DNA of 64,000 bases from a virus (Duplodnaviria > Heunggongvirae > Uroviricota > Caudoviricetes), in IMG/VR virus record IMGVR_UViG_3300028666_000001, positions 1 to 64,000 of that record; one strand, written 5' to 3'. Position 1 is the stretch's first letter, and each line of letters starts with the position of its first letter. This document shows, piece by piece, positions 10,123-53,380 of this stretch. The position numbers and the translations under genes are program-made. The notes under the pieces are model-generated. The model did not search any database and was not told the origin of the DNA. It saw only the letters and a list, made by a program, of their open reading frames with translations.

Positions 10123-10332
10123 ATGGCTAATATTTGTCAGCATTGTGGTTATTCATCTCTTGCACATAGGCAGGTAACTGTTTATTCATCTCTTGTAATA
10201 CAAGCTGCAATTCATAGAGATATCCAGGAGTGGTCTGGTAATGCTAATAGACATTTAGCTGATAGACCATGTGATAATTACAAGAGAGATAATCTTTTGT
10301 ATTTAGAAAGCTTGGTAACTAACAATGGCTGA
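10123..10332 (+). CDS. DNLxYLE-tail small Zn-knuckle protein (family member)
   Basis: CQHCG..H Cys/His cluster; C-terminal DNLLYLESL. Confidence 0.6.
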   Translation: MANICQHCGYSSLAHRQVTVYSSLVIQAAIHRDIQEWSGNANRHLADRPCDNYKRDNLLYLESLVTNNG

Positions 10333-10552
10333 TATTCCTTGTACTTGTGGGGCTCTGAAGTCTCAGCATATAGAATTCGATGCTTTCATGAGCTTGAAGG
10401 GAACACCAGGGTTTGAGAAGATGATTCAGCGTGGGTTATCTCATCATATGCAAATGTATGGTGAGGTATGCATTGAATATAGAGCAGATAACCTTACGTA
10501 TTTAGAATGGGAAGTAGAACGTCGAGAACACATGAAGACGTTTGGATTATAA
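10325..10552 (+). CDS. DNLxYLE-tail small Zn-knuckle protein
   Basis: CTCG..H; tail DNLTYLEWE; start overlaps upstream member. Confidence 0.6.
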   Translation: MADIPCTCGALKSQHIEFDAFMSLKGTPGFEKMIQRGLSHHMQMYGEVCIEYRADNLTYLEWEVERREHMKTFGL

Positions 10553-10719
10553 TAAAGGAGGTATAAACAATGCTAGTGGCGGTCCATGGATGTAACCAAC
10601 AGGTCATGCATAAGGCTGTACAATTCAATAGATGTGAGAATAGTACAAGCGTTTATAGATGTGAAGATTGCGGTGAAGAGTTCGTTGAATATGATGATTC
10701 AGGCTGTGGTGGCTAGATA

Positions 10720-10860
10720 CACTGTACGTATAGATGTCCAATTGCAGATAGGTGAATAGATAAGAGTGTATCTTTGGAAGATAGTGGTTAGTAAGTATGT
10801 GTCTAGATAACAATGGGTTAATTCGCTCACATTATACTTATTATCTGTAGAGTAGATAAA
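10720..10860 (+). promoter_or_regulatory. intergenic cluster of degenerate copies of the promoter-spacer motif (TAGATAAG / GTAAGTATGT)
   Basis: GAATAGATAAGAGTGTATC, GGTTAGTAAGTATGTG, GTAGAGTAGATAAATGTG without intact -35/-10. Confidence 0.3.
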
Positions 10861-10861
10861 T

Positions 10862-11191
10862 GTGCCGACGTTTGAAGGATGGTTGCTCAGTCCAATAGAG
10901 AAGACATACAATGAAAGGGAATCATCATCTATGAGCAGCAAGGCACGTAAACGAGAGATCATCCTTACTTACTTAAGAAATATAGCTGGTGCATTGATAT
11001 CATTACCTATCTCATTAGTTATTGTAACTATTTTAATTTTAGCAGCCCTATTGCTTTTACCTTTGATTTGGGGTATAATGATATTGTGGTGGGTGAATGG
11101 CTTTAAGCAAACTCTGCTTGCTAAACAATTAGAACAGGAGATGGACCAATTGGAATGTGAATGTGTAGATTGGACCCATAAACATGCGTAG
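10862..11191 (+). CDS. membrane protein
   Basis: two TM helices. Confidence 0.4.
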   Translation: MPTFEGWLLSPIEKTYNERESSSMSSKARKREIILTYLRNIAGALISLPISLVIVTILILAALLLLPLIWGIMILWWVNGFKQTLLAKQLEQEMDQLECECVDWTHKHA

Positions 11192-11369
11192 GTTATTAGA
11201 AGAACAAAACTATTTTTGTCAGTGTGGTCATGTGAAGCGTCAGCATGAAGGTCCTGAATATCAATATGAGTGTAAGACATGGATCTATCTCACTGGTATT
11301 TGTCTATGCAATGAATTCAAGCTAGATAACCTTCGTTACTTGGAGGCATTAGTTGACAAGAATGGATGA
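11184..11369 (+). CDS. DNLxYLE-tail small Zn-knuckle protein
   Basis: CQCGHVKRQH..CLC; tail DNLRYLEAL. Confidence 0.65.
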   Translation: MRRLLEEQNYFCQCGHVKRQHEGPEYQYECKTWIYLTGICLCNEFKLDNLRYLEALVDKNG

Positions 11370-11646
11370 TATCTTTTTTATTGTTATACCAATTTTACTT
11401 GTTATGTACCTTATTCTTTGGTCATACATGCTAGTCAATGATTATAAGAAGCAGAAGGCAAGGAAGCGTGAAGCAATGCTTGACATGATCCCATGCTTGT
11501 GTGGTCACACTCGTTGGATTCATTGGCCTCATGATGAGGTTAGTACTTGTCATGATTTTAAATGGGAATGGGATAGGCCATGTCCTTGTAATAAGTATAG
11601 GATGGACAATCTTGTTTACTTGGAACGAGTGGGGCAAGGTAAATGA
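11353..11646 (+). CDS. DNLxYLE-tail small Zn-knuckle protein (N-terminal TM extension)
   Basis: CLCGHTRWIH..CPC; tail DNLVYLERV. Confidence 0.65.
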   Translation: MTRMDDIFFIVIPILLVMYLILWSYMLVNDYKKQKARKREAMLDMIPCLCGHTRWIHWPHDEVSTCHDFKWEWDRPCPCNKYRMDNLVYLERVGQGK

Positions 11647-11831
11647 GTAGCTTACCATGCAATTGCTTTCATAGTAAAGAAGATCATAAGGTATTTACAA
11701 ATGATGATGGATACCTGGATGATGACTTTCGAGGCTGGTGTATCTATAGTGAGATAGGGCAATGTCCTTGTGATTGCTATACACCAATGGACAACCTGGA
11801 GTATTTAGAATGGATGGCATATGGCAAATAA
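11643..11831 (+). CDS. DNLxYLE-tail small Zn-knuckle protein
   Basis: CNCFH..H..CPCDC; tail DNLEYLEWM. Confidence 0.65.
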   Translation: MSSLPCNCFHSKEDHKVFTNDDGYLDDDFRGWCIYSEIGQCPCDCYTPMDNLEYLEWMAYGK

Positions 11832-12027
11832 AACTTTTTATTTCCCTTGTACCTGTGGTCATACAGTAGATAAGCATCTATCTGAAGCTGATCCTAATTT
11901 TAGTTTCATGGGTGTACACTTCTGTTTGGCTAGAGATAGTACTGGCAGATTCCTAGACAATTGTAAAGACTATAGACCAGATAACCTTAGATGGTTGGAG
12001 GAACAGATTGAATCCAGAAACAAATGA
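11821..12027 (+). CDS. DNLxYLE-tail small Zn-knuckle protein
   Basis: CTCGHTVDKH; tail DNLRWLEEQ. Confidence 0.65.
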   Translation: MANKTFYFPCTCGHTVDKHLSEADPNFSFMGVHFCLARDSTGRFLDNCKDYRPDNLRWLEEQIESRNK

Positions 12028-12286
12028 ATTAACACTAGAAGAAAATGAATGGTGTGAAACCCTTTGCATTTGTGGGCATATGCGTGTATGGCATTTAGAT
12101 GAGGAGGAAATAGAAGATCCTCAATGGCATATACCAAAAGGAATGATTGAGCTTGATGATGATGAAACATGGTGCATTGAATGTGATTCTTCTGAATGTA
12201 CAGAGACTGGTGAATATATTGGAAAGCCTGAGCATCCATTTAAACAAGATAACCTTAGATGGTTGGAGAAACTAAGTGAGCGTTGA
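12008..12286 (+). CDS. DNLxYLE-tail small Zn-knuckle protein
   Basis: CICGHMRVWH..CIEC; tail DNLRWLEKL; shares identical 22-nt block with 11821 member. Confidence 0.65.
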   Translation: MNPETNELTLEENEWCETLCICGHMRVWHLDEEEIEDPQWHIPKGMIELDDDETWCIECDSSECTETGEYIGKPEHPFKQDNLRWLEKLSER

Positions 12287-12455
12287 TTTCCCTTGTAGGA
12301 ATTGTGGGCATGAAGAGTTCCATCATAGTGTTACTGGTTGCTGGCAATGTGTGTGCGATACAATCTATACAAATATGGGAGCTTGTGGTAATTATGTATC
12401 AGACAATTTAAAATACCTGGAGGAATTATATGAGAAAAGATCAGCCAAAAATTAA
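12276..12455 (+). CDS. DNLxYLE-tail small Zn-knuckle protein (GTG start, 59 aa, absent from ORF track)
   Basis: read from sequence: VSVDFPCRNCGHEEFHH..CWQCVCD..DNLKYLEELYEKRSAKN. Confidence 0.5.
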   Translation: MSVDFPCRNCGHEEFHHSVTGCWQCVCDTIYTNMGACGNYVSDNLKYLEELYEKRSAKN

Positions 12456-17716: not shown

Positions 17717-18155
17717 GGAGATCATATGATTCAAACTATCTTAGATTGTCTTCAACCTGTTACAGTGCTTGTGTTCGTTGTTGCTGGTACTCTCTCATTG
17801 CTGCTAGGTAAACAGACGCAAGGCGCAATTAACTTTGCATTGGCGTTGTGTAACTTTGTTATCTTCTACGGCTTTAAGATATTGGGGAAATAATATGGAA
17901 ATCAACGGAGAGCTGGTCCTATTCGGTAAGTTCAAATGCCAGTGGAAGGAAGGTCACTCGTACTCAAGTGGCTATTATACCTACCATGAAAAGCTGCAGC
18001 GTTGGGATCTTCCCAAGCTTGAGCTTTATGGATACGTCGATACGAACCAGACGATGGACCGTATCCAGTGTGACATCCAGGACGAAGTGAACCATGATTT
18101 AGAAAACAGAGAACGAGTGAAGCATAACTTGCCTAGCCTGTCAAGGTGCTGCTAA

Positions 18156-18302
18156 TGGAATGGCCTCAAGGTAACGTACCAGGGAATTGTTGGTGTGGAC
18201 ATGAAGAACGAGAACATGCTATACTTAACGTGGAAGGCCGTTGCACAAGTTGCCAGTGTGTAGGCTTTATCTTAGACAGGTGGGTGACTAATGAGCTTTG
18301 AT
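18156..18302 (+). CDS. small Zn-knuckle protein lacking the DNLxYLE tail (family relative)
   Basis: read from sequence: CWCGHEEREH..CTSCQCVGF, 48 aa. Confidence 0.35.
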
Positions 18303-18447: not shown

Positions 18448-18753
18448 ATGGAAATTAAAGAGCTAGTTGATTATACACAACGTATTAAGCTCCTGCGTAA
18501 TGAACTTGAGTTCATCTCTATTGATTTAATGGAGCGACACGAACAGGATAAGGATAACCAGGATCGTATGGGCTTACCTTTCGATATCAAGGATAGCAAG
18601 TTGGATGATGTAGCTAGTAAGCTTGACTACGGGTTGGCTGATATCAATACGGCTGTGGCTTTACTTGAGATGGTATATAGAAACTCAGTGAGACTTAGGA
18701 AACAGGAAGAGAAAGATAATACACCTAAAGAGAACCAGGGCGAATCTAAATGA
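18448..18753 (+). CDS. hypothetical protein
   Basis: AAGGAG RBS. Confidence 0.4.
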   Translation: MEIKELVDYTQRIKLLRNELEFISIDLMERHEQDKDNQDRMGLPFDIKDSKLDDVASKLDYGLADINTAVALLEMVYRNSVRLRKQEEKDNTPKENQGESK

Positions 18754-18893
18754 AGAGATGTACTTGTGGTCATACTAAGAGGGAACACAAGATTAGGGAT
18801 AAGCACTTCGGTATAGTATGTGAGAGTTGCTGTGCAAACGGTAAGTTAGCTTGTGGAGAGATATGCAGAGAGTTCAAAATAAAAGGAGATTAA
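18750..18893 (+). CDS. small Zn-knuckle protein lacking tail (CTCGHTKREH..CESCC..C)
   Basis: read from sequence, 47 aa, ATGA-coupled. Confidence 0.35.
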   Translation: MKRCTCGHTKREHKIRDKHFGIVCESCCANGKLACGEICREFKIKGD

Positions 18894-22358: not shown

Positions 22359-22538
22359 ATGGGCTATTACGATTTCAGAGAATTCTCAAATGACTTTGAT
22401 GATAGGGAATGTATTGTGTGTAAAGCTGGTCTAATGTATCATTCTTATTATGGCACTGGAGATCATCCATTCATTACAGACAATTTACAATTCCTTGAAT
22501 GGAAACTAAAACAAAAGGAAGAGGCGGTAGCAGCATGA
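22359..22538 (+). CDS. DNLxYLE-tail family member (59 aa, not in ORF track)
   Basis: read from sequence: ..ECIVCKAGLMYHSYYGTGDHPFITDNLQFLEWKLKQKEEAVAA. Confidence 0.5.
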   Translation: MGYYDFREFSNDFDDRECIVCKAGLMYHSYYGTGDHPFITDNLQFLEWKLKQKEEAVAA

Positions 22539-23364
22539 TTACTCTAATTGCTGGTGCTGTCGCTTCAGTGCTTACACTTGCTCCTACTCATAAGATTGGG
22601 GTTGCAGCGTGGTGCAATGTTAATAAGACTGATGGAACAGTTCAATGTAACTATGACACTAAACAAGAATGTGAAGACTATAGAGCTACAGATGAATACT
22701 GTGAAAAGAATCCTGAGCCAGGGAAGAAATCCTAATGAACGATAGACAGAGAGCCATTAAGATATTAGTGAAACGTGGTGAACCTATTGAGCCTAATGAG
22801 TGGACTGATACCCTTATTAAGCAGGTTGTAAAAGAGATTAGGAATAGACGTAAGGCTCATAAAGTATGAAACTTTCCCATTGCAAAGCTAATGCCGTTTA
22901 TGATATACTAGTGGCAGAGGCTGGGGCTCATGAGAACAATAGACTATGCTTTGTCTACTCTCATTGTGAAGAGGAATATCCCTGTGATGAGTTTCGCTTT
23001 GGTGGACACTTTGGCTTTGGTGGTAAGTATTGGTCGGAGCGTAATGCAATCAGCTATTATCAAGAGAATCATACGAAGAAATTAGATAAGCTGGAAGCGA
23101 AGATCAATAAACTATTAGGAGAGATAAAATGAAACAACGATTGATTACGATAGGACTGTTCTTTATTATAAGTGGATTGTGTATCCTGGGAGCAGAGCTT
23201 ACAGCTCCAGTTAAACCAGTAGAGCTTGGTTCCAAATGGGAAGTCACTTGTACGGATACTGAGACAGGCAAGGTTACTTACCATGCTGTTGGAGTAGAGT
23301 ATCCTGTAAGTAATTTTCTCCCACGTAATAGCCGAACGGTATGTGTTGGTCGAAGGTTGCCTAA

Positions 23365-23745
23365 ATGAAGACTTTAGCAATATTATTAGCAGCTGTTAGC
23401 ATAGCAAATGCAGGACTGTTGGATGGAGTTAAAGATAATCCAGACAGATACATTAGTCTTGATCTGTTGGCAACTTGGGATCATAGCAACGGTACTACGA
23501 ATACTCCCTCTGAGTATGGTGGGTTGATACCTGCTGATCAACAGAACAGTCTTCAGAATGATAGAGGAATGCGAGGACAACTACGTATTCCATTAGAAAG
23601 TAATGTTACTTTCTTATTGGGAGGCAATTACTCTTATGGAGATTTTACTTATAGTCAAAGTATGAATAATGTATTGCTACCACAAAATGGGTCTGTCAGA
23701 GGTTATGGAGTGGAAGCAGGATTTCGTTTCTATATTCATAATTAA
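23365..23745 (+). CDS. secreted beta-rich protein, paralog of 17312 gene
   Basis: signal peptide SIANAGLL; LLGGNYSYGDF..GVEAGFRFY. Confidence 0.4.
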   Translation: MKTLAILLAAVSIANAGLLDGVKDNPDRYISLDLLATWDHSNGTTNTPSEYGGLIPADQQNSLQNDRGMRGQLRIPLESNVTFLLGGNYSYGDFTYSQSMNNVLLPQNGSVRGYGVEAGFRFYIHN

Positions 23746-24428
23746 TGGAGGATCAAATGTTTAAAGTTGGAGACAAAGTAAAGCTGAACGGTTGCCCCTA
23801 TGATGAACAGATAGTGGCAGAGCTTATCATTTATACGTTTATGAAAGATCAAGTACAGGCTGTTATAGAGACTAAAAGAGTATCTGAAGAAGGCACATCT
23901 GGTCAATGGATCAAGACAGATCATATGGCTGATTGGACTGATAGTGCATGGTTCACGGAGGTCAAATGAAATTTAGAAAGAAACCAGTAGTAATTGAAGC
24001 GGTCCAGTGGCTACCTAATGAACGAGGTAGCTTGATTGGTGGATGGCCTAAGAGTAAAGCTTGGAAACCTGCTAAGACATGGCTAGTAGGTCTTACCATT
24101 CAGAACTTATTCATTCCTACTCTTGAGGGTGAGACAGTTGCTAATGTTGGTGATTGGGTCATTAAAGGTGTAAAGGGTGAGTTCTATGCTTGCAAGCCAG
24201 ATATCTTTGAAATGACATATGAGAAGGTATCATGATAAAGGTACTGAAGTTGACAATTGTTGCATTAGCTATACTGTTTCTTTTACAGACATACAATCAA
24301 GGTAAACGAGATGGTGAGCAGCAGTATAAGCAAAGCCATAGAATGTACATGGCACTAAAGAGTGCTTATCACTTTGGCTATATAGATGGGCATGAAGGGA
24401 AAAAAGAAGATTGGGATGGCCCAGATCT

Positions 24429-25025
24429 ATGAGTAAAGTATGTGTTGGATGCAAAAAAGATAATACTCAGATCCAATTTGGTTCAGATAAACGAACTTTA
24501 TCTGGTTTAAGATCTCGTTGTAATGAATGTCGTAAAACAGAATCATCTCCAGAAGATGTGAAAGCTCGTGGACAACGTTGGTATATTAAAAATAGAAGTA
24601 AAGTATTGAAAAATGTTCAGGCTTATAAAAAGGCTCATATAGATTGGTGGAGAAAATACACTAATAATTATGATAAAATTAATGCTAAAGAAAGTATTAT
24701 TTATAAAATTAAACGAAATCTTCGTGCTCGTTTACGTGCAGCATTAAAACATAATTTAAAACAAGGATCAGCAGTTCAAGAGCTTGGTTGTTCAGTAGAT
24801 TATTTTAGGAAGTATTTAGAATCTAAATTCTATGGAAATATGTCATGGGATACTTATGGGCTTGGAAAAGATAAATGGCAAATAGATCATATTGTTCCTA
24901 TTAAGAGTTTTGATTTTACAAATAAAGAACAATTTAAAAAAGCTGTTCATTATACTAATCTTCAACCTTTATGGTATATTGATCATGTACTTAAAACCAA
25001 AGAAGATAGGAGGAGTTATAAATGA
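24429..25025 (+). CDS. HNH-type endonuclease, paralog 2 of 3
   Basis: CVGCKK..CNECR zinc site, basic region, WQIDHIVPIKSFDF..HYTNLQPLW. Confidence 0.6.
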   Translation: MSKVCVGCKKDNTQIQFGSDKRTLSGLRSRCNECRKTESSPEDVKARGQRWYIKNRSKVLKNVQAYKKAHIDWWRKYTNNYDKINAKESIIYKIKRNLRARLRAALKHNLKQGSAVQELGCSVDYFRKYLESKFYGNMSWDTYGLGKDKWQIDHIVPIKSFDFTNKEQFKKAVHYTNLQPLWYIDHVLKTKEDRRSYK

Positions 25026-37824: not shown

Positions 37825-37853
37825 TTGACAGGACGTTGAATATCTGTTATAAT
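37825..37853 (+). promoter_or_regulatory. perfect consensus sigma70 promoter TTGACA-N17-TATAAT driving an ORF-free region
   Basis: exact consensus hexamers and spacing. Confidence 0.6.
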
Positions 37854-37859
37854 TAATTA

Positions 37860-38125
37860 GGTGGGTTGAGGCCCAATAAAAGAATAAGCCTGGATGCTCA
37901 TAAGAGTAGCCTAACGCATCCCATCAAATATGGAAACTAGGGGTTCAGCGGGATCTCTCCCTAGGAGTACGAAGTAAAGACGAGTCCCGCACAATTTAAG
38001 ATCATAGTGACACGAACGGTGACGTGGTAAAAAACATAATCAGACGTTAGCCAGTTCGATTCTGGGGTGTCCTCTGGGAGAGTGAAGTCTGATTCAGCTG
38101 GTTCAAGTCCAGCATATGATCGCAA
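37860..38125 (+). ncRNA. candidate structured RNA / tRNA-like element downstream of consensus promoter
   Basis: no ORF >35 aa for about 370 nt; hairpins GCTGG-TTCAAGT-CCAGC (38097-38113) and CCAG-TTCGATT-CTGG (38051-38065) are T-arm-like; 7-bp helix GATCATA(38000-06)/TATGATC(38115-21); hairpin CTAGGG..CCCTAG at 37928-37956. Confidence 0.3.
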
Positions 38126-38592
38126 ATTTGTGAGTGGATTAAATGAGTGACATGAGGTTCCAATTGGATCATATATAATCCAAGATGCCTACACTTCTCA
38201 CAAAGCCCTTTAAAGGAGATGCAAATGAAAATAATTATTGTTACAACCGTTGTTATTTTTTGGTATGCAGTAGCTGTTTGGTTAACCTATAAGATTGCTC
38301 AGTGGTTTGAGCGTAACTCATAAGGAGAGTAGAATGCAATTAGAATGTGAAACGTTTCTATTAGCTGCAGGTAGTACATACAATGAAGTAGTTAAAAGAT
38401 CAGGTCGTTTACGGATTTCTACAAGTGGAGCAATTAAGGCTTGTTCAGTTATTGGAATAACTGAAGGATTTCCTCTATTTATAAATGAATCCACTAATTA
38501 TTTAGATGTAAAAAAAGGAAGTATACTTCGTATTATAAATAGAGATGTGAGTGTTAATGTTTATTTAAGTTATGAGGGGAAAGGAAAATAAT

Positions 38593-38951: not shown

Positions 38952-39134
38952 ATGGAGTCGTTTGTTTGTAGAACCTGTGGTCATATTCTTGGTCATGGCT
39001 TGAATTTTGCAGAGACAGGTAGATATGATTCTGTATGTCATTGTGGTTGCACTGATTGGATTCCATCAGGTAATTTACAGTATTTGGAATGGTGTTTGGA
39101 TCATAAGGTGAATAATGTACAACAGTCGTTGTAG
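38952..39134 (+). CDS. DNLxYLE-tail small Zn-knuckle protein
   Basis: CRTCGHILGH..CHCGC; tail GNLQYLEWC. Confidence 0.6.
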   Translation: MESFVCRTCGHILGHGLNFAETGRYDSVCHCGCTDWIPSGNLQYLEWCLDHKVNNVQQSL

Positions 39135-39306
39135 GAATTGCTTTTGTCTTCATTTTAATAAAGACACGAGCTTAAATTACCCAGAGAAATGTTATTGTCC
39201 AGAAGCATTTAAAGCCATACTAAGATGTATCAATTATGTGCCAAAAGAGAACTTAGAGTATTTAGAATGGGTACTAGAACATGAAACGAAATTGGAAAGT
39301 AGATAA
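39115..39306 (+). CDS. DNLxYLE-tail small Zn-knuckle protein
   Basis: CRNCFCLH..CYC; tail ENLEYLEWV. Confidence 0.6.
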   Translation: MYNSRCRNCFCLHFNKDTSLNYPEKCYCPEAFKAILRCINYVPKENLEYLEWVLEHETKLESR

Positions 39307-39538
39307 TACTGCTTTAATTGGTGAGTTTAGGTTCTGGCATGGTGAACCTAGTAGACTTCCTGCTCCCTGGGCACATCGATGTTTTTATAAGCATCCATGG
39401 AACCAAACAGTAGAAGGTAGATGTCCAGCAGCTAATCAGGTTAGAGGTAATCGTTTTACTGATCTTTGTGTAATTCAGAAGCTTGATAATCTGTTATACT
39501 TAGAATACAAGTTGGATGAAAAGGAAAAAATAAAATGA
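39281..39538 (+). CDS. DNLxYLE-tail family member
   Basis: tail DNLLYLEYK. Confidence 0.55.
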   Translation: MKRNWKVDNTALIGEFRFWHGEPSRLPAPWAHRCFYKHPWNQTVEGRCPAANQVRGNRFTDLCVIQKLDNLLYLEYKLDEKEKIK

Positions 39539-41687: not shown

Positions 41688-42308
41688 ATGAAACGAGTAC
41701 TTAGCAGCGGTTTTATAAAAGTACACCAGATTCTTGGAACTGAGAAAGAACGCCTAGATACCATTACTTGTCTTGGCTATCTTGGTGATAAAGCAATAGA
41801 ATACATCCTCTTTAATAACCCAGCGGTGCTTGATTACGTTGAGTTTAGATTTGAAGTCAAGGCTCCTCTGCTTACCCTTCTAGACTTCCAGGATGCCCAT
41901 TTAGGCACTATAAGTAAGCCAGAGGACTCTGAGCATCAAGTAGCCTATTTACCCTCCCAATTCTATTCCAAGGATGGTTTAACGTACAAGATTATGGACG
42001 TTAAGAGCTGTAATGCTCACTATACTAAACTTAACAACTTCTTTGAATGGTCCTTCAATTTTTATAATAAATTGGTCAAAGAGGGAATGTGTCAGGAGCA
42101 AGCTAAGCTTGTGCTGCCTCAAGGTGTATTTGTCACCTTTATGTGGAATATCACAGCCAAAGATCTAATCGAATTCATTGAACAGCATTATAATGACTCA
42201 CCAGAAATCTATGGATATTGTTCTACATTTGTGTTATATCTTGAAGAACATTTGCCACTTACTATGAGATATCTGAAGGCTCACGAATGGCAACACATAA
42301 GCCTGTAA
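41688..42308 (+). CDS. hypothetical protein
   Basis: 206 aa ORF. Confidence 0.4.
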   Translation: MKRVLSSGFIKVHQILGTEKERLDTITCLGYLGDKAIEYILFNNPAVLDYVEFRFEVKAPLLTLLDFQDAHLGTISKPEDSEHQVAYLPSQFYSKDGLTYKIMDVKSCNAHYTKLNNFFEWSFNFYNKLVKEGMCQEQAKLVLPQGVFVTFMWNITAKDLIEFIEQHYNDSPEIYGYCSTFVLYLEEHLPLTMRYLKAHEWQHISL

Positions 42309-42505
42309 TTGATGTACCTTGTAAGCTTTGTAGTCATAATCAAAGCCAACATGAGGATTTAGTAAATCCTAGTATTGACCCAATTGGTTTACAATATTGT
42401 AGTGGATGCTATAATTCTTTGGGTGAAGAAAGTTGCTTTCACGATTTTAGTCCAGACAATTTAAAATACCTGGAATTAGAGTATGAACGAAAAGAACAGC
42501 GTTAG
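42287..42505 (+). CDS. DNLxYLE-tail small Zn-knuckle protein
   Basis: CKLCSHNQSQH..CSGC; tail DNLKYLELE. Confidence 0.6.
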   Translation: MATHKPVIDVPCKLCSHNQSQHEDLVNPSIDPIGLQYCSGCYNSLGEESCFHDFSPDNLKYLELEYERKEQR

Positions 42506-42734
42506 GTTTGTAGGTGAAGGATCGAAGTGCAAGAATTGCCCCCATTTAAAGTATATTCATGAGTCTACTAATGGTATGGCTGTTCTCACATGCGGGAATT
42601 TTGAGTTCGAAGATAATCTCCAGTATTTGGAGTATCAACTTCAGTTAAAGGAAAAACGTGTTAAGACTTATTGGGATCGCTTGTGCAACTATTGCCCTAT
42701 TTTTCGAATTTTCAAGTTATCTAAGACAGATTAA
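42483..42734 (+). CDS. DNLxYLE-motif Zn-knuckle protein
   Basis: CKNCPHLKYIH..C; DNLQYLEYQ. Confidence 0.55.
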   Translation: MNEKNSVRFVGEGSKCKNCPHLKYIHESTNGMAVLTCGNFEFEDNLQYLEYQLQLKEKRVKTYWDRLCNYCPIFRIFKLSKTD

Positions 42735-42940: not shown

Positions 42941-43126
42941 TTGGAAAATAATTTCATATGCGTTTGTGGGCATCCAAAAAGTATGCATAGAGATAGTGAT
43001 CCCTGGTTTGATGGACGAGCTACTTGTTTGATGTCTAACTCTTCTTCTGGGGTTCATTTCTGTTTGTTTAAACTTGATAATCTTAGGTATTTAGAATATG
43101 TCCTCAATCAGCGAAAATTGGTTTAG
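42941..43126 (+). CDS. DNLxYLE-tail small Zn-knuckle protein
   Basis: CVCGHPKSMH; tail DNLRYLEYV. Confidence 0.6.
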   Translation: MENNFICVCGHPKSMHRDSDPWFDGRATCLMSNSSSGVHFCLFKLDNLRYLEYVLNQRKLV

Positions 43127-43520
43127 ATCATCAGTAGTTGGAACTGATCCCGTTACTAAGGGAACATTCATAATTCAATGGGCTAATTTTATTTATGACC
43201 TTGAATCTCAGGATGATGGTACTGGAACTGCAGTATTCAAAGAGGCTAGGGTAGAGGGTCAGATTTTAATTGAGGGTCCAGCTAGTCGCAATCCATTGTA
43301 TCAAGTAGCGAGAGATCATATGTTACGTTTGCAGGGGTTAATGGCAACAGTTATATTTGGTGCTGAGAAGAAGCTTATTCGTTTTGATTCCATATCAGAC
43401 TATCAGATCCAGGAAGATGGAATTGTAAATGAGATTGAATTAAAGGCTGTATTTGAGATATTAAATAATTTAGAATATTTAGAGAACATACAAGCCTATA
43501 AGGAGAACAATCTATTATGA
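43098..43520 (+). CDS. DNLxYLE-tail family, long form
   Basis: tail NNLEYLENI. Confidence 0.5.
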   Translation: MSSISENWFRSSVVGTDPVTKGTFIIQWANFIYDLESQDDGTGTAVFKEARVEGQILIEGPASRNPLYQVARDHMLRLQGLMATVIFGAEKKLIRFDSISDYQIQEDGIVNEIELKAVFEILNNLEYLENIQAYKENNLL

Positions 43521-43720
43521 GAAAAATGGAATGTGATGATTGTGGTTGCATAAAGAGCCTTCACAAAAAAACATCTGATAGGAAACCTTATTGTTATGGA
43601 TGTTGGGAAATCTTGCGTGATAATAGAACAGAATATATTAAAAGTGGTACATCTGCGTGGCATATTTTTAAATTAAATAATTTGAAGTGGCTTGAACAGC
43701 AGTATGAAAAGACCTTGTAA
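43517..43720 (+). CDS. DNLxYLE-tail small Zn-knuckle protein
   Basis: CDDCGCIKSLH..CYGC; tail NNLKWLEQQ. Confidence 0.6.
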   Translation: MRKMECDDCGCIKSLHKKTSDRKPYCYGCWEILRDNRTEYIKSGTSAWHIFKLNNLKWLEQQYEKTL

Positions 43721-43883
43721 ATGTGGCTGTAGCTTTGAGGATCATGTAGAATTAAGATTTGAAACTCCAAAACCATTTATCTATTATTGTAGGAATTGTG
43801 GAAGTAAACCTCCAAGTTGGTGTTACAATTATGTACCAATTGACAATTTAGAATACCTAGAGTGGTTACTACGTGATGAATAA
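43692..43883 (+). CDS. DNLxYLE-tail small Zn-knuckle protein
   Basis: CKCGCSFEDH..CRNC; tail DNLEYLEWL. Confidence 0.6.
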   Translation: MNSSMKRPCKCGCSFEDHVELRFETPKPFIYYCRNCGSKPPSWCYNYVPIDNLEYLEWLLRDE

Positions 43884-44067
43884 ACATTGTAAGAATTGTG
43901 GATTTCTGTGGAACCAACATCCTGATGGTGCAAAAGATTCTGAGACGTTCGCTTATATTCGTATTATGGCAAAGAATGATAATCCTCATTCAAAGTGTAA
44001 GTGTAAGAGATTCAAACCAATGAGTAATTTAGAATTCTTGGAGTGGAAGGTTAAACATGGTAGATAA
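43873..44067 (+). CDS. DNLxYLE-tail small Zn-knuckle protein
   Basis: CKNCGFLWNQH..CKC; tail SNLEFLEWK. Confidence 0.6.
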   Translation: MMNKHCKNCGFLWNQHPDGAKDSETFAYIRIMAKNDNPHSKCKCKRFKPMSNLEFLEWKVKHGR

Positions 44068-44386
44068 GATTTGTTCCTGTGATCATGAAGAGGTATCTCA
44101 TAAGCTCAGAGATAAGAGCGTGGATGAGATCCTTAATGCTATGCGTCAGGATCGAACTATTGAGGCCAAATATAGTCCAGGCCAAATGGAAGCATTAGGA
44201 TTCTTTGTACCACAAGATAATAATAAGTATTATACCTATGGTGACATAAAAGATGCTATAGCTCGAATCAGAGATACTTATAGTCCATGTCAGAAGCGGT
44301 TTTGTCCTTGTAGAAAGTTTGAGGCAGACAATCTTAAGACCTTGGAGAAAATGTGTGAGCGTAAAACCAGTCAGATTGTACATTGA
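44057..44386 (+). CDS. DNLxYLE-tail Zn-knuckle protein
   Basis: CSCDHEEVSH..CPC; tail DNLKTLEKM. Confidence 0.55.
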   Translation: MVDKICSCDHEEVSHKLRDKSVDEILNAMRQDRTIEAKYSPGQMEALGFFVPQDNNKYYTYGDIKDAIARIRDTYSPCQKRFCPCRKFEADNLKTLEKMCERKTSQIVH

Positions 44387-47234: not shown

Positions 47235-47915
47235 ATGGAACTAGTTCAGAAAGATTCAAATGATCCAAAGTATGTTGCGGATAATCCAGGTATGAATGCT
47301 GAACAGGCTAAAGCTTTTGCTGCCCTCGCTGGTGTAGCTACAGCAGCTAAAGCAGCAGATCCAAGACTTGCAATGGCACAAACGATTGCAGCTCAAACAG
47401 GTAAAACTATAGAAGAAGTATTGTCATTCATGGGTCCTGCAGTTTCAGCTCCAGTACCAGCAGCACCAGCAGAGATCTTTGCAGAAGAGCCTCTTGAAGA
47501 GATTAAAGATGCAAAGCCAGCAAAGGTTGTAGTTCCAGTAGCTGAAGTCCCAGGTGATGATAAGTTCGTCGTTACTGAGATCGTCAATCTGGAAGATGCT
47601 TCTGAAGCAGATCTTGACAAACTTGCACAGGAAGAGGAAGACGAAACGCAAGATTGGAGTGGAAAGATCCGAGTAGGTAGCAAAGTAAAGATCATCTATC
47701 AGGTTTCTGCCAGCCGTATCAATTGGATTGGTAAGAAAGGCAAAGTAACCCGTATCATTGGTAATGAAGCTGCTAAGGTATTCGATGTTGAGTTCCAGGG
47801 TGGTAAGATTCCAAAGATTCGTTTGAATAAGAAAACTGGCAAACTTGAGCGTGGTTATGAGAAGAAGGTTATTCGTAATACGTTCTCAGAAGACCAGATC
47901 GAACTAGCCGACTAA
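47235..47915 (+). CDS. hypothetical acidic protein with KOW-like C-terminal region
   Basis: AAAGGAG RBS; A/P-rich N-half. Confidence 0.4.
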   Translation: MELVQKDSNDPKYVADNPGMNAEQAKAFAALAGVATAAKAADPRLAMAQTIAAQTGKTIEEVLSFMGPAVSAPVPAAPAEIFAEEPLEEIKDAKPAKVVVPVAEVPGDDKFVVTEIVNLEDASEADLDKLAQEEEDETQDWSGKIRVGSKVKIIYQVSASRINWIGKKGKVTRIIGNEAAKVFDVEFQGGKIPKIRLNKKTGKLERGYEKKVIRNTFSEDQIELAD

Positions 47916-48100
47916 TGAATAGAAGTCCTTGTAGAATTTGTGGGGCTTGGAGAGTACAAGGTTATCATTTTGTTCCTGTGGATATAGGTGGACCTACTAC
48001 TAATATCCCCAATCCTTATGTCCGTAAAGAAGAATGTGTTCCATCTGATAATCTTGAGTATTTAGAACAGCAATATGAGAAACGAAATGTTCAAAAGTGA
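47915..48100 (+). CDS. DNLxYLE-tail small Zn-knuckle protein
   Basis: CRICG..H; tail DNLEYLEQQ. Confidence 0.6.
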   Translation: MNRSPCRICGAWRVQGYHFVPVDIGGPTTNIPNPYVRKEECVPSDNLEYLEQQYEKRNVQK

Positions 48101-48260
48101 TTGCAGAAACTGCAAACACAATAATCATGGTGATCACTGTGATGTTGTTTATTGTTCTTATGGTGATCCAAGTGAACCTGATTATTGTGAGTGTTCAGAG
48201 TATATACCATCCAACAATTTAGAATATGTTGAATGGTCCTATCTTAGGAGTGTAAAATGA
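48075..48260 (+). CDS. DNLxYLE-tail small Zn-knuckle protein
   Basis: CRNCKHNNHGDHC..CEC; tail NNLEYVEWS. Confidence 0.6.
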   Translation: MRNEMFKSDCRNCKHNNHGDHCDVVYCSYGDPSEPDYCECSEYIPSNNLEYVEWSYLRSVK

Positions 48261-48571
48261 GTATGACAATTGGTATTCCAACAGGTGCTTCACAAATAGT
48301 TCCAGTAGGAGCTTATCCTCCCCCACCCACAGGTAATCTTAAAATGCCCTCTTATCCAGGTGAAGATCTTAAGCCTGAAAAAGAATGGGAACCAGAATTC
48401 AGAGAAACCTTTTCTAAGGGGATTCTGAAGATGAGAATGCAGGAGTATTTTGGTGGGAAATATACAAAGAAATACATTGATACTTATTTAGAATTTATGG
48501 TTCTTAGTGGTATGGTTAATAACCTCGAATATTTAGAATTCAAGGGGATGTTGGCAAGGGAGTCTCTATGA
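48257..48571 (+). CDS. DNLxYLE-tail family, long form
   Basis: tail NNLEYLEFK. Confidence 0.5.
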   Translation: MSMTIGIPTGASQIVPVGAYPPPPTGNLKMPSYPGEDLKPEKEWEPEFRETFSKGILKMRMQEYFGGKYTKKYIDTYLEFMVLSGMVNNLEYLEFKGMLARESL

Positions 48572-48987
48572 GACGTATCCAGCGATTCCATGTACTATCT
48601 GTCTTTGGTGATATGAAACCCCACAATTATAATGATGCTATTATGATTGGTTCTTTGCACATTTCTAATCCAGCTAATCGTATGGAGATTTGGCCTGGGC
48701 AGAAGATCAGCAAGAATATGTATGCCAGTCAGGTATTCGAAGCAATGGTTAAAAAGTTGATGGAAGATGGTCTATTAAAACGTGTAGAAACCAATGAGAT
48801 TCGAATGGCAAGACTTAATAAAGAATACATGATTGATGCACGAGACTGGAATATTCAGATTACAGAAAAGGGTCGTGATTGCTTAGGTATGGAACAGATC
48901 GCTCGTTCAGGTGATTATAGCTTCTATAAGAACTTTGATGGTACAACAGGCAGCGCAGCAAAGATTAACCCAGGTCTGTTTAAATAA
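48568..48987 (+). CDS. hypothetical protein
   Basis: 139 aa ORF. Confidence 0.4.
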   Translation: MRRIQRFHVLSVFGDMKPHNYNDAIMIGSLHISNPANRMEIWPGQKISKNMYASQVFEAMVKKLMEDGLLKRVETNEIRMARLNKEYMIDARDWNIQITEKGRDCLGMEQIARSGDYSFYKNFDGTTGSAAKINPGLFK

Positions 48988-49184
48988 TGAAAGATCTTTG
49001 TAGGTGTGGGCATTTAAAACCAATGCATATTACTTGGTCTAATGGCGGTGTTGCTGTTAGCTATGATGTTACAACATGTATTGGGTATAGAGATGAAGCA
49101 TTGGGTGTATGTCCATGCAAGAGTTTTATTCCAGATGACAATCTTGAATTTCTAGAACTTGAAGCAGCGAAGAGAGGTAAATAA
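48987..49184 (+). CDS. DNLxYLE-tail small Zn-knuckle protein
   Basis: CRCGHLKPMH..CPC; tail DNLEFLELE. Confidence 0.6.
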   Translation: MKDLCRCGHLKPMHITWSNGGVAVSYDVTTCIGYRDEALGVCPCKSFIPDDNLEFLELEAAKRGK

Positions 49185-49368: not shown

Positions 49369-49680
49369 TTGTACAAAGCTATTGCAAGAATGGTTGAAAG
49401 GATGAAAGTATTTCTTCTTTGGTTTAATGAATGGGAAGCTAACTATGTGCTTGGGATCTTTGAGTCTAAAGAACAGGCTGAACGATGGCAATCTTATTTT
49501 GTAGCTAATCCACTTGACGATGATTATGGTCCTGATATGGCGCATTTTGCAAGGGGTGAAGTTGATTGGACAAGTAGATTTATGATTGAGGAATATGAGG
49601 TTGGTAAGCTAAAACCAAGTATCAAAATTGATAACCTGAAGTATGTCGAGCATTTATTTACGGAGAATGAAGATGCATGA
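49369..49680 (+). CDS. DNLxYLE-tail family, long form
   Basis: tail DNLKYVEHL. Confidence 0.5.
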   Translation: MYKAIARMVERMKVFLLWFNEWEANYVLGIFESKEQAERWQSYFVANPLDDDYGPDMAHFARGEVDWTSRFMIEEYEVGKLKPSIKIDNLKYVEHLFTENEDA

Positions 49681-50640: not shown

Positions 50641-50856
50641 GTGGGAAATAAGCGTAGAATATTAATTTGTAGCTGTGGTCATAAGAAGAAACTGCATGAG
50701 TCAGGTCCTTGTTGGGGATGTCTTGAACTTAACCTAAAGGATAATATGGCTGGTATTACTGTTAATGATAGACATATTATGTGCATAAGATTTAAATTAG
50801 ACAATCTTAGATACTTAGAAATGGAATATGCGAGACTATCAAAAAGAATATCTTGA
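50641..50856 (+). CDS. DNLxYLE-tail small Zn-knuckle protein
   Basis: CSCGHKKKLH..CWGC; tail DNLRYLEME. Confidence 0.6.
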   Translation: MGNKRRILICSCGHKKKLHESGPCWGCLELNLKDNMAGITVNDRHIMCIRFKLDNLRYLEMEYARLSKRIS

Positions 50857-51007
50857 GCATCCAGTTAAATGTGTTAAATGTGGACAGGCTTGGGTTCCTG
50901 ATGCAAGACATGTGGTAGATGACCGAGTAGAAAATTGCAAGCCAGATAATTTAACTTATTTAGAATTCATGTATGAAAAAAGCCTTAATAAACCACAAGT
51001 CGAATGA
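50828..51007 (+). CDS. DNLxYLE-tail family member (59 aa, not in track)
   Basis: read from sequence: ..CVKCGQAWVPDARH..CKPDNLTYLEFMYEK. Confidence 0.5.
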   Translation: MRDYQKEYLEHPVKCVKCGQAWVPDARHVVDDRVENCKPDNLTYLEFMYEKSLNKPQVE

Positions 51008-51218
51008 TCCAAGAGAGTACTGTCGTACTTGTAGCCATGCTGATTGGTTGCACGTTAAAACATATTATTATGCTTGTGGTAGAAAACCACGTTCCTATCA
51101 TGAGGCACAATATGCCTCTGAGATTTGTCCCTGTAAAGAATTTTTGCCTGAAGATAATTTAGCTTACTTAGAGCAGTTAGAGAAAAGGAGTCACACTAAT
51201 GAAACCCCACAATCATGA
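50973..51218 (+). CDS. DNLxYLE-tail small Zn-knuckle protein
   Basis: CRTCSHADWLH..CPC; tail DNLAYLEQL. Confidence 0.6.
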   Translation: MKKALINHKSNDPREYCRTCSHADWLHVKTYYYACGRKPRSYHEAQYASEICPCKEFLPEDNLAYLEQLEKRSHTNETPQS

Positions 51219-51834
51219 GGATGAAGAATCTCAAGGTACACCATTTAATCCATATAATGAATTTGAAATTGATACCTATAAGGCTCTTCTTAAAGATAGG
51301 ATCATTCTTTATAATGGTGATATCGATAAAAGTGTAATTGAACGAATTGTTCTACCACTCACCACTTTGGCACAGAAAAGTGTAAAGCCAATAAAGCTCC
51401 TGATCAATTCTCCAGGTGGGTCTGTAACAGATGGGCAAATGGTTGTAGATTCTATCTTAACTTCTAAAGCACCAGTTATCACCGTTGCACTTGGAGAAGC
51501 TATGAGTGCAGCCTTTGATATATTTCTTGCTGGAGATAGACGCATTGTGTACCCAAATACAGTCCTCATGATGCACTCAGGCTCATCTAGGTTTGAATCT
51601 CAGACTTTACCTCAGATCAATGTAGAGGCTGATCTTCATCGTAGGTACTTTGAGAGATGGTCTGCTTGGTATGCCTCCCGCACTAAAGTTGATCAGAAGG
51701 CTTGGCATGACATGCTTAGTACTGGATTAAATTATTATTATTTTCCAGAGGAAGCATTAAAGGTTGGTTTGGTTCATGAGATCATTAAACCAGTAAGTAA
51801 GAATGTTTCTGGAAGAAAACGATTTAAATTATAA
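51199..51834 (+). CDS. ClpP-fold serine peptidase (S14), divergent copy 2
   Basis: LINSPGGSV, GEAMSAAFDIFLAGDRRIVYPNTVLMMHSGSS parallels ClpP Ser/His regions; AAAAGGAG RBS. Confidence 0.65.
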   Translation: MKPHNHEDEESQGTPFNPYNEFEIDTYKALLKDRIILYNGDIDKSVIERIVLPLTTLAQKSVKPIKLLINSPGGSVTDGQMVVDSILTSKAPVITVALGEAMSAAFDIFLAGDRRIVYPNTVLMMHSGSSRFESQTLPQINVEADLHRRYFERWSAWYASRTKVDQKAWHDMLSTGLNYYYFPEEALKVGLVHEIIKPVSKNVSGRKRFKL

Positions 51835-51843
51835 TAGATAACA

Positions 51844-52143
51844 ATGGAAGACGAGATCTTTGATTTAGATTTGGAGTCTCTTGCAAAAGAAGCTGCTGAT
51901 CAGGATAATAGCTACATTTGGTATGTAGGCACTCACGTTGAGATTGAGGATGGTATTTCTAGATTCCTTAACAACTTACGTTATAATGGTCATATCTTGC
52001 TTGAAGAGCCCAAGATTTACGATTATCTCTACCAGGGACGAGATATTCTTTATATTATTTTTTATAAATCCCTAACAAAGCTAGAGTATTTAGAATATAA
52101 ATACCAACAGAAGGTAGATAACAATGGTAGCGATACTTTGTAA
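51844..52143 (+). CDS. DNLxYLE-tail family, divergent long form
   Basis: tail TKLEYLEYK. Confidence 0.45.
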   Translation: MEDEIFDLDLESLAKEAADQDNSYIWYVGTHVEIEDGISRFLNNLRYNGHILLEEPKIYDYLYQGRDILYIIFYKSLTKLEYLEYKYQQKVDNNGSDTL

Positions 52144-52342
52144 ATGTGGTCACAGGAAGTACAAACATAGTCCTTATCCAATTGATGCTCCCCATTGTAA
52201 GGGTGAGAAGTGGCATTGGTATCATGTACCAATTGTATTTGGCTGCAGATGTCGAGCTTATGATGATACTGGTAATTTGGAATTATTAGAATGGCTCTCT
52301 TCTAGACGAGTAGATAAGAATAAAAAGGGTAGAAAAGTATAA
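52124..52342 (+). CDS. DNLxYLE-tail small Zn-knuckle protein
   Basis: CKCGHRKYKH..CRC; tail GNLELLEWL. Confidence 0.6.
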   Translation: MVAILCKCGHRKYKHSPYPIDAPHCKGEKWHWYHVPIVFGCRCRAYDDTGNLELLEWLSSRRVDKNKKGRKV

Positions 52343-52397
52343 TATTTCCGTGTTAATATAGGAGTTCTATGCACTGTAGCAGGATTTGGTTATTTTA

Positions 52398-52922
52398 ATG
52401 GGTAGACCTAAGAAACAATTTTGTCCTAAAGGACATGATACTTTTATTTGTGGTAGAACTGATAATAATTGTTGCAGACAATGTAATAGAGACAGTACCA
52501 GAATATGGATTAATTTACATAAAGACCAACATAAGATTGTTAATGCCAATTGGAAGAAAGAAAATAAAGAAGCATATAATGCCTATCATAGAAATAGATA
52601 TCATACAAATATAAATCACAAATTGGCTAGTAGGATTCGCAATCGTATTAATGACGTTTTAAATGGCAAGGTAAAAGTATCACATGTCCTAGATGTGCTT
52701 GGTTGCGGTTTGGATTTTTTAAAGGTTCATATAGAAAAACAATTTAAAGATGGCATGTCCTGGAGTAATTGGAATAAGTGGGGATGGCACATCGATCATA
52801 TTACTCCACTGGATAGTTTTGATTTGTCTGACAAAGAACAGTTTGCAAAAGCAGTTCATTATACCAATCTTCAGCCTATGTGGGCTACCGATAATTGGTC
52901 GAAAGGAAATAGAATAAAGTGA
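52398..52922 (+). CDS. HNH-type endonuclease, paralog 3 of 3
   Basis: CPKGH..CCRQCNRD, basic region, WHIDHITPLDSFDL..HYTNLQPMW. Confidence 0.6.
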   Translation: MGRPKKQFCPKGHDTFICGRTDNNCCRQCNRDSTRIWINLHKDQHKIVNANWKKENKEAYNAYHRNRYHTNINHKLASRIRNRINDVLNGKVKVSHVLDVLGCGLDFLKVHIEKQFKDGMSWSNWNKWGWHIDHITPLDSFDLSDKEQFAKAVHYTNLQPMWATDNWSKGNRIK

Positions 52923-53091
52923 AAGATGAAGTAAAAATACGTAAGTCGTTTCCAAATGATTTTGATCCAAATACCAAAATTCATAAGGTCAAAACGGATT
53001 ACCAAAGAAATAATAACAAAAAAGAAATCCAGAAAGCCTTAGAACAAGAGGCATTGGATAATGCTGATTCCGATTTAGACTGGCTCCCCTA

Positions 53092-53241
53092 ATGAAACGT
53101 AGTCCTAAAGAATTAAAAATCAAAATATGTTGGTGTGGTCACTCCGCTGAATCTCATCCTAGATACTTAGAGTATACAGGATATATTTGCGTAGATTGTG
53201 ACAAGTGCAATGACTATGGCCCAGCGACTGTTAATAGATAA
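53092..53241 (+). CDS. divergent family relative (CWCGHSAESH..PRYLEY then extra Cys cluster), 49 aa
   Basis: read from sequence. Confidence 0.3.
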   Translation: MKRSPKELKIKICWCGHSAESHPRYLEYTGYICVDCDKCNDYGPATVNR

Positions 53242-53380
53242 AAAGTTTCCATGTAAATGTGGTCATGATAAAGATGAGCATCATCTTCATTCCAGAGCAT
53301 GTTGGTTTTGTGCTCTCTATGGTGAATGGTGTGAGAATTTTGTTGGAGACAATTTAAAATACTTGGAAGGTAAAATTTAA
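53198..53380 (+). CDS. DNLxYLE-tail small Zn-knuckle protein
   Basis: CKCGHDKDEHH..CWFC; tail DNLKYLEGK. Confidence 0.65.
   Translation: MTSAMTMAQRLLIDKKFPCKCGHDKDEHHLHSRACWFCALYGEWCENFVGDNLKYLEGKI

Follow-up and report, generated by a model that had tools for sequence, protein, structure and literature searches.

Overlapping arrays of small Cys/His-rich proteins with a shared C-terminal tail in uncultured large phages

The first 64,000 nucleotides of the IMG/VR virus record IMGVR_UViG_3300028666_000001 (hereafter the window) carry every gene on the plus strand, with a positive GC skew throughout, and hold overlapping arrays of co-directional genes for small proteins that combine a Cys/His-rich knuckle with a conserved C-terminal tail. 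Large and huge phages are rich in unannotated small open reading frames (ORFs). We seeded a family hidden Markov model (HMM) with 13 ORFs having both the CxCxH..H knuckle and the tail, and iterated it inside the window. The model converged on 46 plus-strand ORFs of 44-165 aa (E<0.01), and no minus-strand ORF of the window matched it even at E<10. These members add up to 10,104 nt (15.8% of the window, or 23% of positions 10123-53380) and comprise 36 proteins with knuckle and tail, five with the knuckle only and five with the tail only. By regular expression, the strict tail [DN]NLx[YWF]LE occurs 29 times in the plus-strand frames of the window and never on the minus strand, a looser form 38 times versus once, and the knuckle C-x(1,2)-C-x-H-x(3-5)-H in 31 plus-strand ORFs, 30 of them family members, and in no minus-strand ORF. 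Three further tail-only ORFs were recovered by regular expression alone, which brings the knuckle-less tail proteins of the window to eight (Table 1). An earlier note on this DNA had described at least 45 paralogs taking up about 15% of the window, arranged in overlapping arrays and accompanied by knuckle-only relatives and tail-only long forms; these claims were borne out, with start/stop overlaps of 4-44 nt, and the description proved accurate on each point that could be checked.

The small overlapping ORFs of the family are called differently in the public annotations of contigs 99-100% identical to the window (L025-L030); the array at 29.8-30.7 kb, for example, is given two to four genes depending on the annotation, from which it follows that standard gene callers under-annotate the family. 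Strain-level gain or loss of array genes was considered as a source of the differing gene lists and rejected as a gene-calling artefact, since these contigs are collinear with the window as well as nearly identical to it.

The typical member is a Cys/His-rich mini-protein of about 60 residues. An N-terminal knuckle, C-x(1,2)-C-G-H-x4-H, is followed by a loop that differs greatly in length and sequence and contains one or two Cys, by C-x-C, and by the C-terminal tail (P)-x-D-N-L-x-Y-L-E-x-x-Y, after which comes a short charged extension. Columns C7, C10, H12, H17, C25, C37, D43, N44, L45, L48 and E49 of a 141-sequence alignment are invariant or nearly so. The ligand order was also read in 301 non-redundant sequences, independently of the loop alignment. 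Here, C-C-H-H-C-C-C was the modal signature (87/301), with C-C-H-H-C-H-C-C in another 31; the first knuckle, C-x(1,2)-C-x-H, was present in 271 sequences (169 as CxC(G)H and 102 as CxxC(G)H), the last knuckle took the form CxC 170 times, CxxC 31 times and a lone Cys 100 times, and two conserved His residues and a mid-loop Cys were also seen. In 249 of the 301 sequences (83%) the last Cys lies 5 or 6 residues ahead of the tail Asp. An aromatic residue stands 3-4 positions ahead of the tail. The distance from knuckle to tail ranges from 23 to 85 residues, and 3-16 residues follow the tail motif, or up to 33 in 42483-42734 and in tail-internal or long forms. The isoelectric points span 4.2-9.9; the family is thus without a uniform DNA-binding or DNA-mimic character. 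Judging from the ligand pattern, the 7-8 Cys/His residues would suffice to bind one or two zinc ions.

AlphaFold2 models of 12276-12455 and 11184-11369 (predicted local distance difference test, pLDDT, 72 and 62, respectively) share only short beta bridges near the knuckle and a C-terminal helix, which starts at the tail and is the highest-confidence element in both. Two tail-bearing proteins, 11353-11646 (IFFIVIPILLVMYLILWSYMLV) and 32551-33048 (LWGFVGMIFGMLVAVFCGINLL), have N-terminal hydrophobic, transmembrane-like segments, and some family members may be membrane-anchored.

To define the distribution of the family, a profile of 34 window members was scored against 1.84 billion cluster representatives (clusters at 50% identity). 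It returned 1,758 representatives at E<=1e-3, nearly all of 55-85 aa and all unannotated, and the strict tail was present in 156 of 168 retrieved proteins. A word-indexed set of 5.8 billion proteins yielded only entries named 'hypothetical protein' with no Pfam domain, on contigs of up to 192 kb. Other phage DNA, in which the earlier note had proposed to look for the tail, does contain it: a back-translated PDNLKYLE DNA pattern drew 21 IMG/VR stretches, of which 13 have between 2 and 15 members apiece, on a single strand in every case, and the remaining eight have no member and are chance matches. Contig L001 (GCA_037025665.1, a 139 kb contig of a metagenome-assembled genome) holds 14 members in 20 kb and represents a distant phage that is syntenic with the window, with Band_7, HAD_SAK_2, DUF4326, Thg1 and RNA ligase in the same order; L002, a different large phage with a RecA/PolA/primase context, holds seven members in 20 kb. 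A 41 kb portion of phage LR756501 (735 kb) was without members, and among GTDB species representatives the pattern matched 74 times, each time by chance and never in a family member. The family, common in environmental phage DNA, appears to be restricted to phages; it characterizes a set of large uncultured phages and is always multi-copy in them.

The tail is encoded by freely varying codons: Asp by GAT 18 and GAC 14 times, Leu by TTA 15, CTT 15 and other codons 11 times, Tyr by TAT 16 and TAC 12 times, and Glu by GAA 24 and GAG 17 times. Pairs of tails with the same residue use the same codon in only 43% of cases, and across copies the seven tail codons are 65% identical as DNA versus 72% as protein. 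The only DNA repeats within 10-53.5 kb are tail regions of 20-47 nt with 61-91% identity, which rules out recent tandem DNA duplication. Nine window members have reciprocal-best orthologs in L001 with 41-58% amino-acid identity (19 non-family genes average 59%), and their loops are visibly conserved between the two phages; the family regions themselves are not alignable as DNA. For the computable pairs, and with synonymous divergence (dS) saturated, the ratio of nonsynonymous to synonymous substitution rates (dN/dS) was 0.14-0.36 for the family and 0.10-0.26 for controls. In a strain 96-99% identical to the window (L027), we counted 2 substitutions in 4,002 nt of family genes. Ongoing hypermutation, or diversification of the kind driven by diversity-generating retroelements, was rejected on the basis of this count and of the ortholog dN/dS.

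Altogether, each paralog is old and under purifying selection. The synonymous tail codons, the low ortholog dN/dS and the lack of long high-identity repeats uphold the earlier view that selection acts on the protein rather than on a DNA repeat, and the alignments likewise confirm that the Cys/His ligands and the tail are conserved while the loops differ greatly between paralogs. The term 'diversifying', in contrast, found no support: since positional orthologs conserve their loops at low dN/dS, strains hardly differ and long high-identity repeats are lacking, it should read 'anciently diversified, individually conserved'. 'Hypervariable' is true only between paralogs, and the family is anciently diversified and sub-functionalised, not fast-evolving now.

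The tail is not confined to proteins with the knuckle. In the eight knuckle-less window proteins the N-L-x-Y-L-E tail follows N-terminal parts that are unrelated, weakly DUF7574-like or DUF7336-like, and two tail-only proteins have L001 orthologs that retain it. In the metagenomic protein P0022, read-through has fused a knuckle and tail unit to a DUF7336-like and tail unit, so that the architecture of 49369-49680 recurs there joined to a knuckle member. In a fusion ('Rosetta stone') analysis, the long matches were joined adjacent array genes, and no known domain was found. Present on unrelated non-zinc proteins, with its invariant polar N and E kept, the tail behaves as a portable module. The main rival to a role of this module in binding a shared partner is that the tail serves solely as the core helix of the fold, that the members are small zinc proteins that work independently, have unrelated functions and bind no partner in common, and that the tails found elsewhere reflect exon-like shuffling of a stable helix. 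The locked spacing between the last Cys and the tail and the aromatic residue ahead of it speak for such a role in the fold, as do the hydrophobic residues L45, L48 and Y52, which would share one helix face. Pro-x-Asp...Glu is a classic helix N-cap, and the start of the tail fits this pattern. However, the eight proteins without a zinc core preserve precisely the polar N and E of the tail, and the five knuckle-only relatives of the window imply that the core does not strictly depend on the helix. We consider a tail conserved purely for the fold possible, if on balance doubtful.

The layout of the arrays suggests that their genes are co-transcribed, and they are probably translationally coupled. 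Start offsets to the next ORF of at least 40 aa were measured for 129 genes with a tail, of which 41 are in the window and 88 belong to independent phages. In 36 of them (28%), the next gene has its ATG exactly 7 nt past the Glu codon of the tail; the runner-up offsets, +10 and +28, have nine cases each. This start codon embedded in the tail helix of the preceding gene is a new finding of this analysis. Its bases belong to the codons of Tyr(E+3) and Glu/Asp(E+4), 'TAT GAx'. No residue is commoner at E+3 than Tyr, whose codon there is TAT 44 times and TAC 3 times, versus 73 and 30 times for the Tyr inside the tail (p=2e-4). Examples in the window are the junctions 28467/28475, 30261/30269, 48067/48075, 50820/50828 and 50965/50973, and the same is seen in L001, L002 and L007-L024. 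The coupled genes are without the usual AAGGAG Shine-Dalgarno sequence of the phage, which is ordinarily arranged as AAGGAG-N7-ATG.

As the tail codons sit at the Shine-Dalgarno position of the next gene, we tested the tail for a role as ribosome-binding site. Codons resembling a Shine-Dalgarno sequence were found in 7/37 coupled versus 23/92 uncoupled genes (p=0.5), and Leu-Glu is most often encoded by TTAGAA rather than with a GGAG. The test having failed, the overlap is a secondary packing or coupling feature over a protein-level motif. The same data bear on the wider proposal that the tail is conserved as RNA or DNA, either as the initiation region of the next gene or as a cassette recombination site, with the peptide motif as a by-product. 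Tail codons 7-28 nt upstream of the next start, the frequent ATG at +7 and the bias of its Tyr codon towards TAT are all in its favor, but the tails are more alike as protein than as DNA, share a codon for the same residue in less than half of cases and form only short, imperfect DNA repeats, and tail-only and array-terminal genes retain the motif without any +7 start. We therefore reject this proposal, to which we assign hardly any probability.

The earlier note had been unable to place the family in any named family, and our searches led to the same result. In Pfam, searched with 10 members singly and 141 as a set, no family was matched by more than four members, the matches being ExoX-like_C, FAM221 and Zn_ribbon_CSL, all below threshold; NCBIfam gave no match, the best E value among PDB sequences was 0.67, and the family has no structural relative. 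The 141 members found only families without an assigned function in PHROGs, weakly and in the knuckle region alone. As none of these matches was significant or recurrent, the family is undescribed in the curated libraries searched, and a literature search with motif strings and topic terms found no description of it. Three of the PHROGs, 1311, 2078 and 17060, were matched weakly by 6-7 of the 141 members (phrog_1311 by 7, best E 6.6e-5). Unlike the family they have no tail, they have no annotated function and the matches are not recurrent; they may be distant knuckle-only relatives in cultured phages.

In their dimensions, the members resemble zinc-ribbon or rubredoxin-knuckle mini-proteins, of which the haloarchaeal C(P)XCG zinc-finger micro-proteins are an example (PMC10716476): both have 50-80 residues, a C-x(1,2)-C-G knuckle that often follows a Pro, a Cys/His-rich core and many small paralogs per genome. 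At most 4 of the 141 members, however, match zinc-ribbon families (Zn_ribbon_8, DZR, Zn_ribbon_CSL), with best E values of 0.024-0.04 and below the gathering scores; the 7-8 putative ligands come in the order C-C-H-H-C-C-C rather than as two CxxC pairs, and the invariant DNLxYLE helix has no counterpart in zinc ribbons. A SWIM zinc finger (C-x-C-x(n)-C-x-H) was rejected because the observed order is C-x(1,2)-C-x-H-x4-H...C...C-x-C and no Pfam SWIM match was obtained, and an ExoX-like_C or DUF3820-type 'YLxW' helix because only 4/141 members matched (best E 3.7e-4), without recurrence. In one member, the tail has a weak likeness to the 'NL-x-W-x-T' helix found in HNH PHROGs (E 1e-3 and 7e-3), and like HNH/His-Me fingers the family has Cys/His near an Asn. 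An HNH identity was nevertheless rejected, as this weak match concerns one of 10 members, no HNH is among the top families for the 141, and the order of the motifs misfits an H-N-H site.

Two further likenesses are drawn as analogies. With T4-type internal proteins the family shares a short conserved terminal peptide on small divergent proteins whose genes stand in tandem where the genome is plastic, whereas the T4 capsid-targeting sequence is N-terminal, the motif of the family is C-terminal and there is no sequence similarity, with no tblastn match in 50,697 phage records. Poxvirus ankyrin/PRANC proteins and F-box-type hub-adaptor expansions likewise comprise dozens of copies with a short conserved C-terminal module and variable bodies; they are not homologous to the family, whose bodies are tiny zinc scaffolds instead of repeat domains and whose host is bacterial.

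Between the arrays of the window lie accessory genes of the kind usual in large phages (Table 1). Besides those tabulated, there are genes for peptide deformylase, ThyX, a macro domain protein and YopX. None of the HNH-like genes joins the family HMM; the C-terminus encoded by 2419-2991 shares 66.5% DNA identity with that of 24411-25025. The last array is directly followed by a 933-aa low-complexity protein (53392-56193), rich in Ala, Pro, Gly and Lys, with an embedded tail-less knuckle (CKTCKHTSGTH...CDCTGY). Further downstream comes a Cys-rich 1,178-aa protein (59275-62811) that has numerous CxxC and C2H2-like motifs and matches nothing in Pfam. The latter has homologs near arrays in three other viral contigs (IMGVR 3300036766_000678, 3300044797_000101 and 3300048503_000023).

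These neighbors are relevant to the proposal that the tail is a virion-packaging or processing signal, i.e., that the members, in the manner of the T4 internal proteins, are internal or ejected proteins loaded into the capsid by way of their shared C-terminal helix and possibly trimmed after the Glu by a prohead protease. In agreement with it, otherwise unrelated small proteins have in common a short terminal motif with an invariant Glu, a copy of the knuckle lies inside the 933-aa protein, beside other giant and possibly structural proteins, homologs of the 1,178-aa protein accompany arrays in the three other contigs, and two ClpP-family proteases are encoded among the arrays. The arrays, however, stand among genes of RNA repair and nucleotide metabolism and not in a recognizable head module; the motif is C-terminal with a variable extension of 3-16 residues after it, and both ClpPs look like ordinary ClpP. 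Prohead proteases cleave at L/I-x-E in T4 and at S/A/G-x-E in phiKZ, and YLE misfits both consensus sequences. A packaging signal is, in our estimation, distinctly improbable.

The two ClpP paralogs, both situated within the array region, also raise the question of whether the members are adaptors or substrates of phage ClpP, with a tail that recruits an unfoldase-ClpP complex and loops that select host proteins for degradation, in the manner of the F-box/PRANC proteins of eukaryotic viruses. A conserved short motif on a variable body would suit such adaptors. Yet no unfoldase of the ClpX/ClpA type was seen in the window, and no ClpP was seen near the family in the fragments available from other phages. 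The C-terminal degrons known for ClpX occupy the very end of the protein, whereas the tail motif is internal to the last 10-20 residues. Taken together, we regard ClpP adaptors as very unlikely.

Two other segments of the window stand out. The gap at 37822-38294, of about 470 nt, has no plus-strand ORF in an otherwise tightly packed genome; ARAGORN and Rfam scans were negative there and found no tRNA genes or RNA elements in the window as a whole. The segment 22735-23760 is strain-variable: in L027/L028 its flanks are 96-99% identical to the window, 22866-23128 is 90.5% identical and 23128-23760 is not alignable. It encodes two small secreted- or lipoprotein-looking proteins (23129-23368 and 23365-23745).

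Table 1. Family members, relatives and neighboring genes in the window
Position	Strand	Feature	Match or remark
10123-10332	+	Knuckle and tail (array 1)	HMM E 4e-11
10325-10552	+	Knuckle and tail (array 1)	HMM E 8e-15
11184-11369	+	Canonical C-C-H-H-C-C-C and tail; AlphaFold2 model 2	HMM E 1e-14
11353-11646	+	Hydrophobic N-terminal extension, knuckle and tail	HMM E 5e-14
11643-11831	+	Knuckle and tail	HMM E 2e-15
11821-12027	+	Knuckle and tail	HMM E 1e-14
12008-12286	+	Long loop, knuckle and tail	HMM E 2e-12
12276-12455	+	Knuckle and tail; AlphaFold2 model 1, pLDDT 72, tail helix residues 44-58	HMM E 6e-16
18146-18301	+	Knuckle-only relative	HMM E 1e-12
18750-18893	+	Knuckle-only relative	HMM E 2e-5
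22359-22538	+	Degenerate knuckle and tail, singleton	HMM E 6e-9
26817-27074	+	Knuckle and tail; L001 ortholog	HMM E 2e-15
28255-28488	+	Knuckle and tail	HMM E 4e-11
28475-28705	+	Knuckle and tail	HMM E 2e-14
29845-29979	+	Knuckle-only relative, first gene of array	HMM E 5e-6
29976-30122	+	Member (shortest, 48 aa); L001 ortholog	HMM E 5e-15
30100-30282	+	Member; L001 ortholog	HMM E 2e-13
30269-30490	+	Member; L001 ortholog, dN/dS 0.27	HMM E 1e-12
30483-30713	+	Knuckle and tail	HMM E 4e-14
31612-31956	+	Tail-only long form, weakly DUF7574-like N-terminal part	HMM E 1e-7
32551-33048	+	Tail-only long form, N-terminal hydrophobic segment; L001 ortholog	HMM E 2e-4
33045-33299	+	Tail-only form, internal tail; L001 ortholog, dN/dS 0.36	HMM E 6e-7
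33286-33498	+	Knuckle and tail; L001 ortholog	HMM E 3e-17
36168-36353	+	Knuckle and variant tail DSLKLLE	HMM E 3e-16
36581-36745	+	Knuckle-only relative (weak)	HMM E 2e-3
36720-36992	+	Tail-only long form	HMM E 1e-4
38952-39134	+	Knuckle and tail	HMM E 1e-16
39115-39306	+	Knuckle and tail	HMM E 5e-10
39281-39538	+	Degenerate knuckle and tail	HMM E 2e-9
42287-42505	+	Knuckle and tail	HMM E 9e-16
42483-42734	+	Tail then 33-aa extension	HMM E 7e-15
42941-43126	+	Knuckle and tail	HMM E 9e-14
43098-43520	+	Tail-only long form, NNLEYLE	Regular expression only
43517-43720	+	Knuckle and tail	HMM E 1e-11
43692-43883	+	Knuckle and tail	HMM E 5e-16
43873-44067	+	Knuckle and tail	HMM E 2e-14
44057-44386	+	60-aa insert between knuckles, and tail	HMM E 3e-12
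47915-48100	+	Reduced ligand set and tail	HMM E 1e-8
48075-48260	+	Knuckle and tail	HMM E 4e-11
48257-48571	+	Tail-only long form, NNLEYLE	Regular expression only
48987-49184	+	Knuckle and tail	HMM E 8e-14
49369-49680	+	Tail-only form, weak DUF7336-like domain and tail	Regular expression only
50641-50856	+	Knuckle and tail	HMM E 7e-14
50828-51007	+	Reduced ligand set and tail	HMM E 7e-9
50973-51218	+	Knuckle and tail	HMM E 3e-14
51844-52143	+	Tail-only long form, TKLEYLE	HMM E 4e-6
52124-52342	+	Knuckle and variant tail GNLELLE	HMM E 5e-13
53092-53241	+	Knuckle-only relative	HMM E 8e-8
53198-53380	+	Knuckle and tail, last of the arrays	HMM E 5e-15
54433-54531	+	Knuckle-like copy, no tail, residues 348-380 of 933-aa protein	HMM E 4.6e-4, domain 2.7e-3
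1286-2416	+	Rnl1-type RNA ligase	RNA-repair set
5272-6474	+	HD phosphohydrolase fused to P-loop kinase (Pnkp-like)	RNA-repair set
33779-34504	+	Thg1-like tRNA-His guanylyltransferase	RNA-repair set
35132-36178	+	Second RNA ligase	52.6% identical to one in 735 kb phage LR756501 (best match)
37159-37821	+	ClpP paralog	Pfam E 2e-68
51199-51834	+	ClpP paralog, divergent from the first	Pfam E 6e-30
31916-32560	+	DnaC/IstB-like ATPase	Weak match, below Pfam cutoff
2419-2991, 24411-25025, 52386-52922, 34678-35148	+	Several HNH-like endonuclease paralogs	Motif reading only, no profile search run

Having weighed these alternatives, we tentatively favor, as the likeliest reading, a battery of specialized small zinc-scaffold binders that share one docking helix. 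With one or two zinc ions bound, the Cys/His ligands would keep together a minimal scaffold that presents the variable loops; the tail helix would dock all tail-bearing proteins onto one common partner, or mediate their mutual association, and the paralog-specific loops would give each protein its own target. A large phage would then express, from its accessory-gene region, effectors of host takeover or counter-defence, or adaptors. An adaptor-like architecture, with a portable conserved tail on a variable body, fits the sequence data, and lineage-specific expansions of small proteins are an established phenomenon in large viruses.

Several observations weigh against the docking-helix reading. 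The evidence for it consists of sequence and predicted structures, the two AlphaFold2 models are only moderately confident, and zinc binding is deduced from the ligands. The fixed spacing from Cys to tail and the capping pattern could mean that the tail is conserved mainly as part of the fold. Searches of 50,697 deposited phage genomes by megablast and tblastn found no family member and thus allowed no transfer of function by homology, and in the fragments of 4-20 kb examined, no non-family gene adjoins the arrays in all phages and no partner was found.

It is tempting to speculate further that the DNLxYLE helix is a universal address tag, which would route about 50 small zinc-scaffold proteins, together with unrelated domains, to one phage machine, be it the capsid for co-injection or a ClpP-based degradation complex. 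We think this unlikely; if true, large phages would carry a modular and expandable library of effectors or adaptors whose scaffold is among the smallest known.

A single family explains about 46 unannotated ORFs in one 43 kb region and at least 1,758 public metagenome protein clusters, and its definition would improve the annotation of such phages. Its peptides of about 60 residues, with their putative metal site and a helix of 10 residues suitable for mutation or as bait, also make it a cheap experimental target. If the tail is a docking or address signal, the family would offer a compact natural scaffold for engineered binders and would reveal how a phage organizes dozens of accessory effectors.

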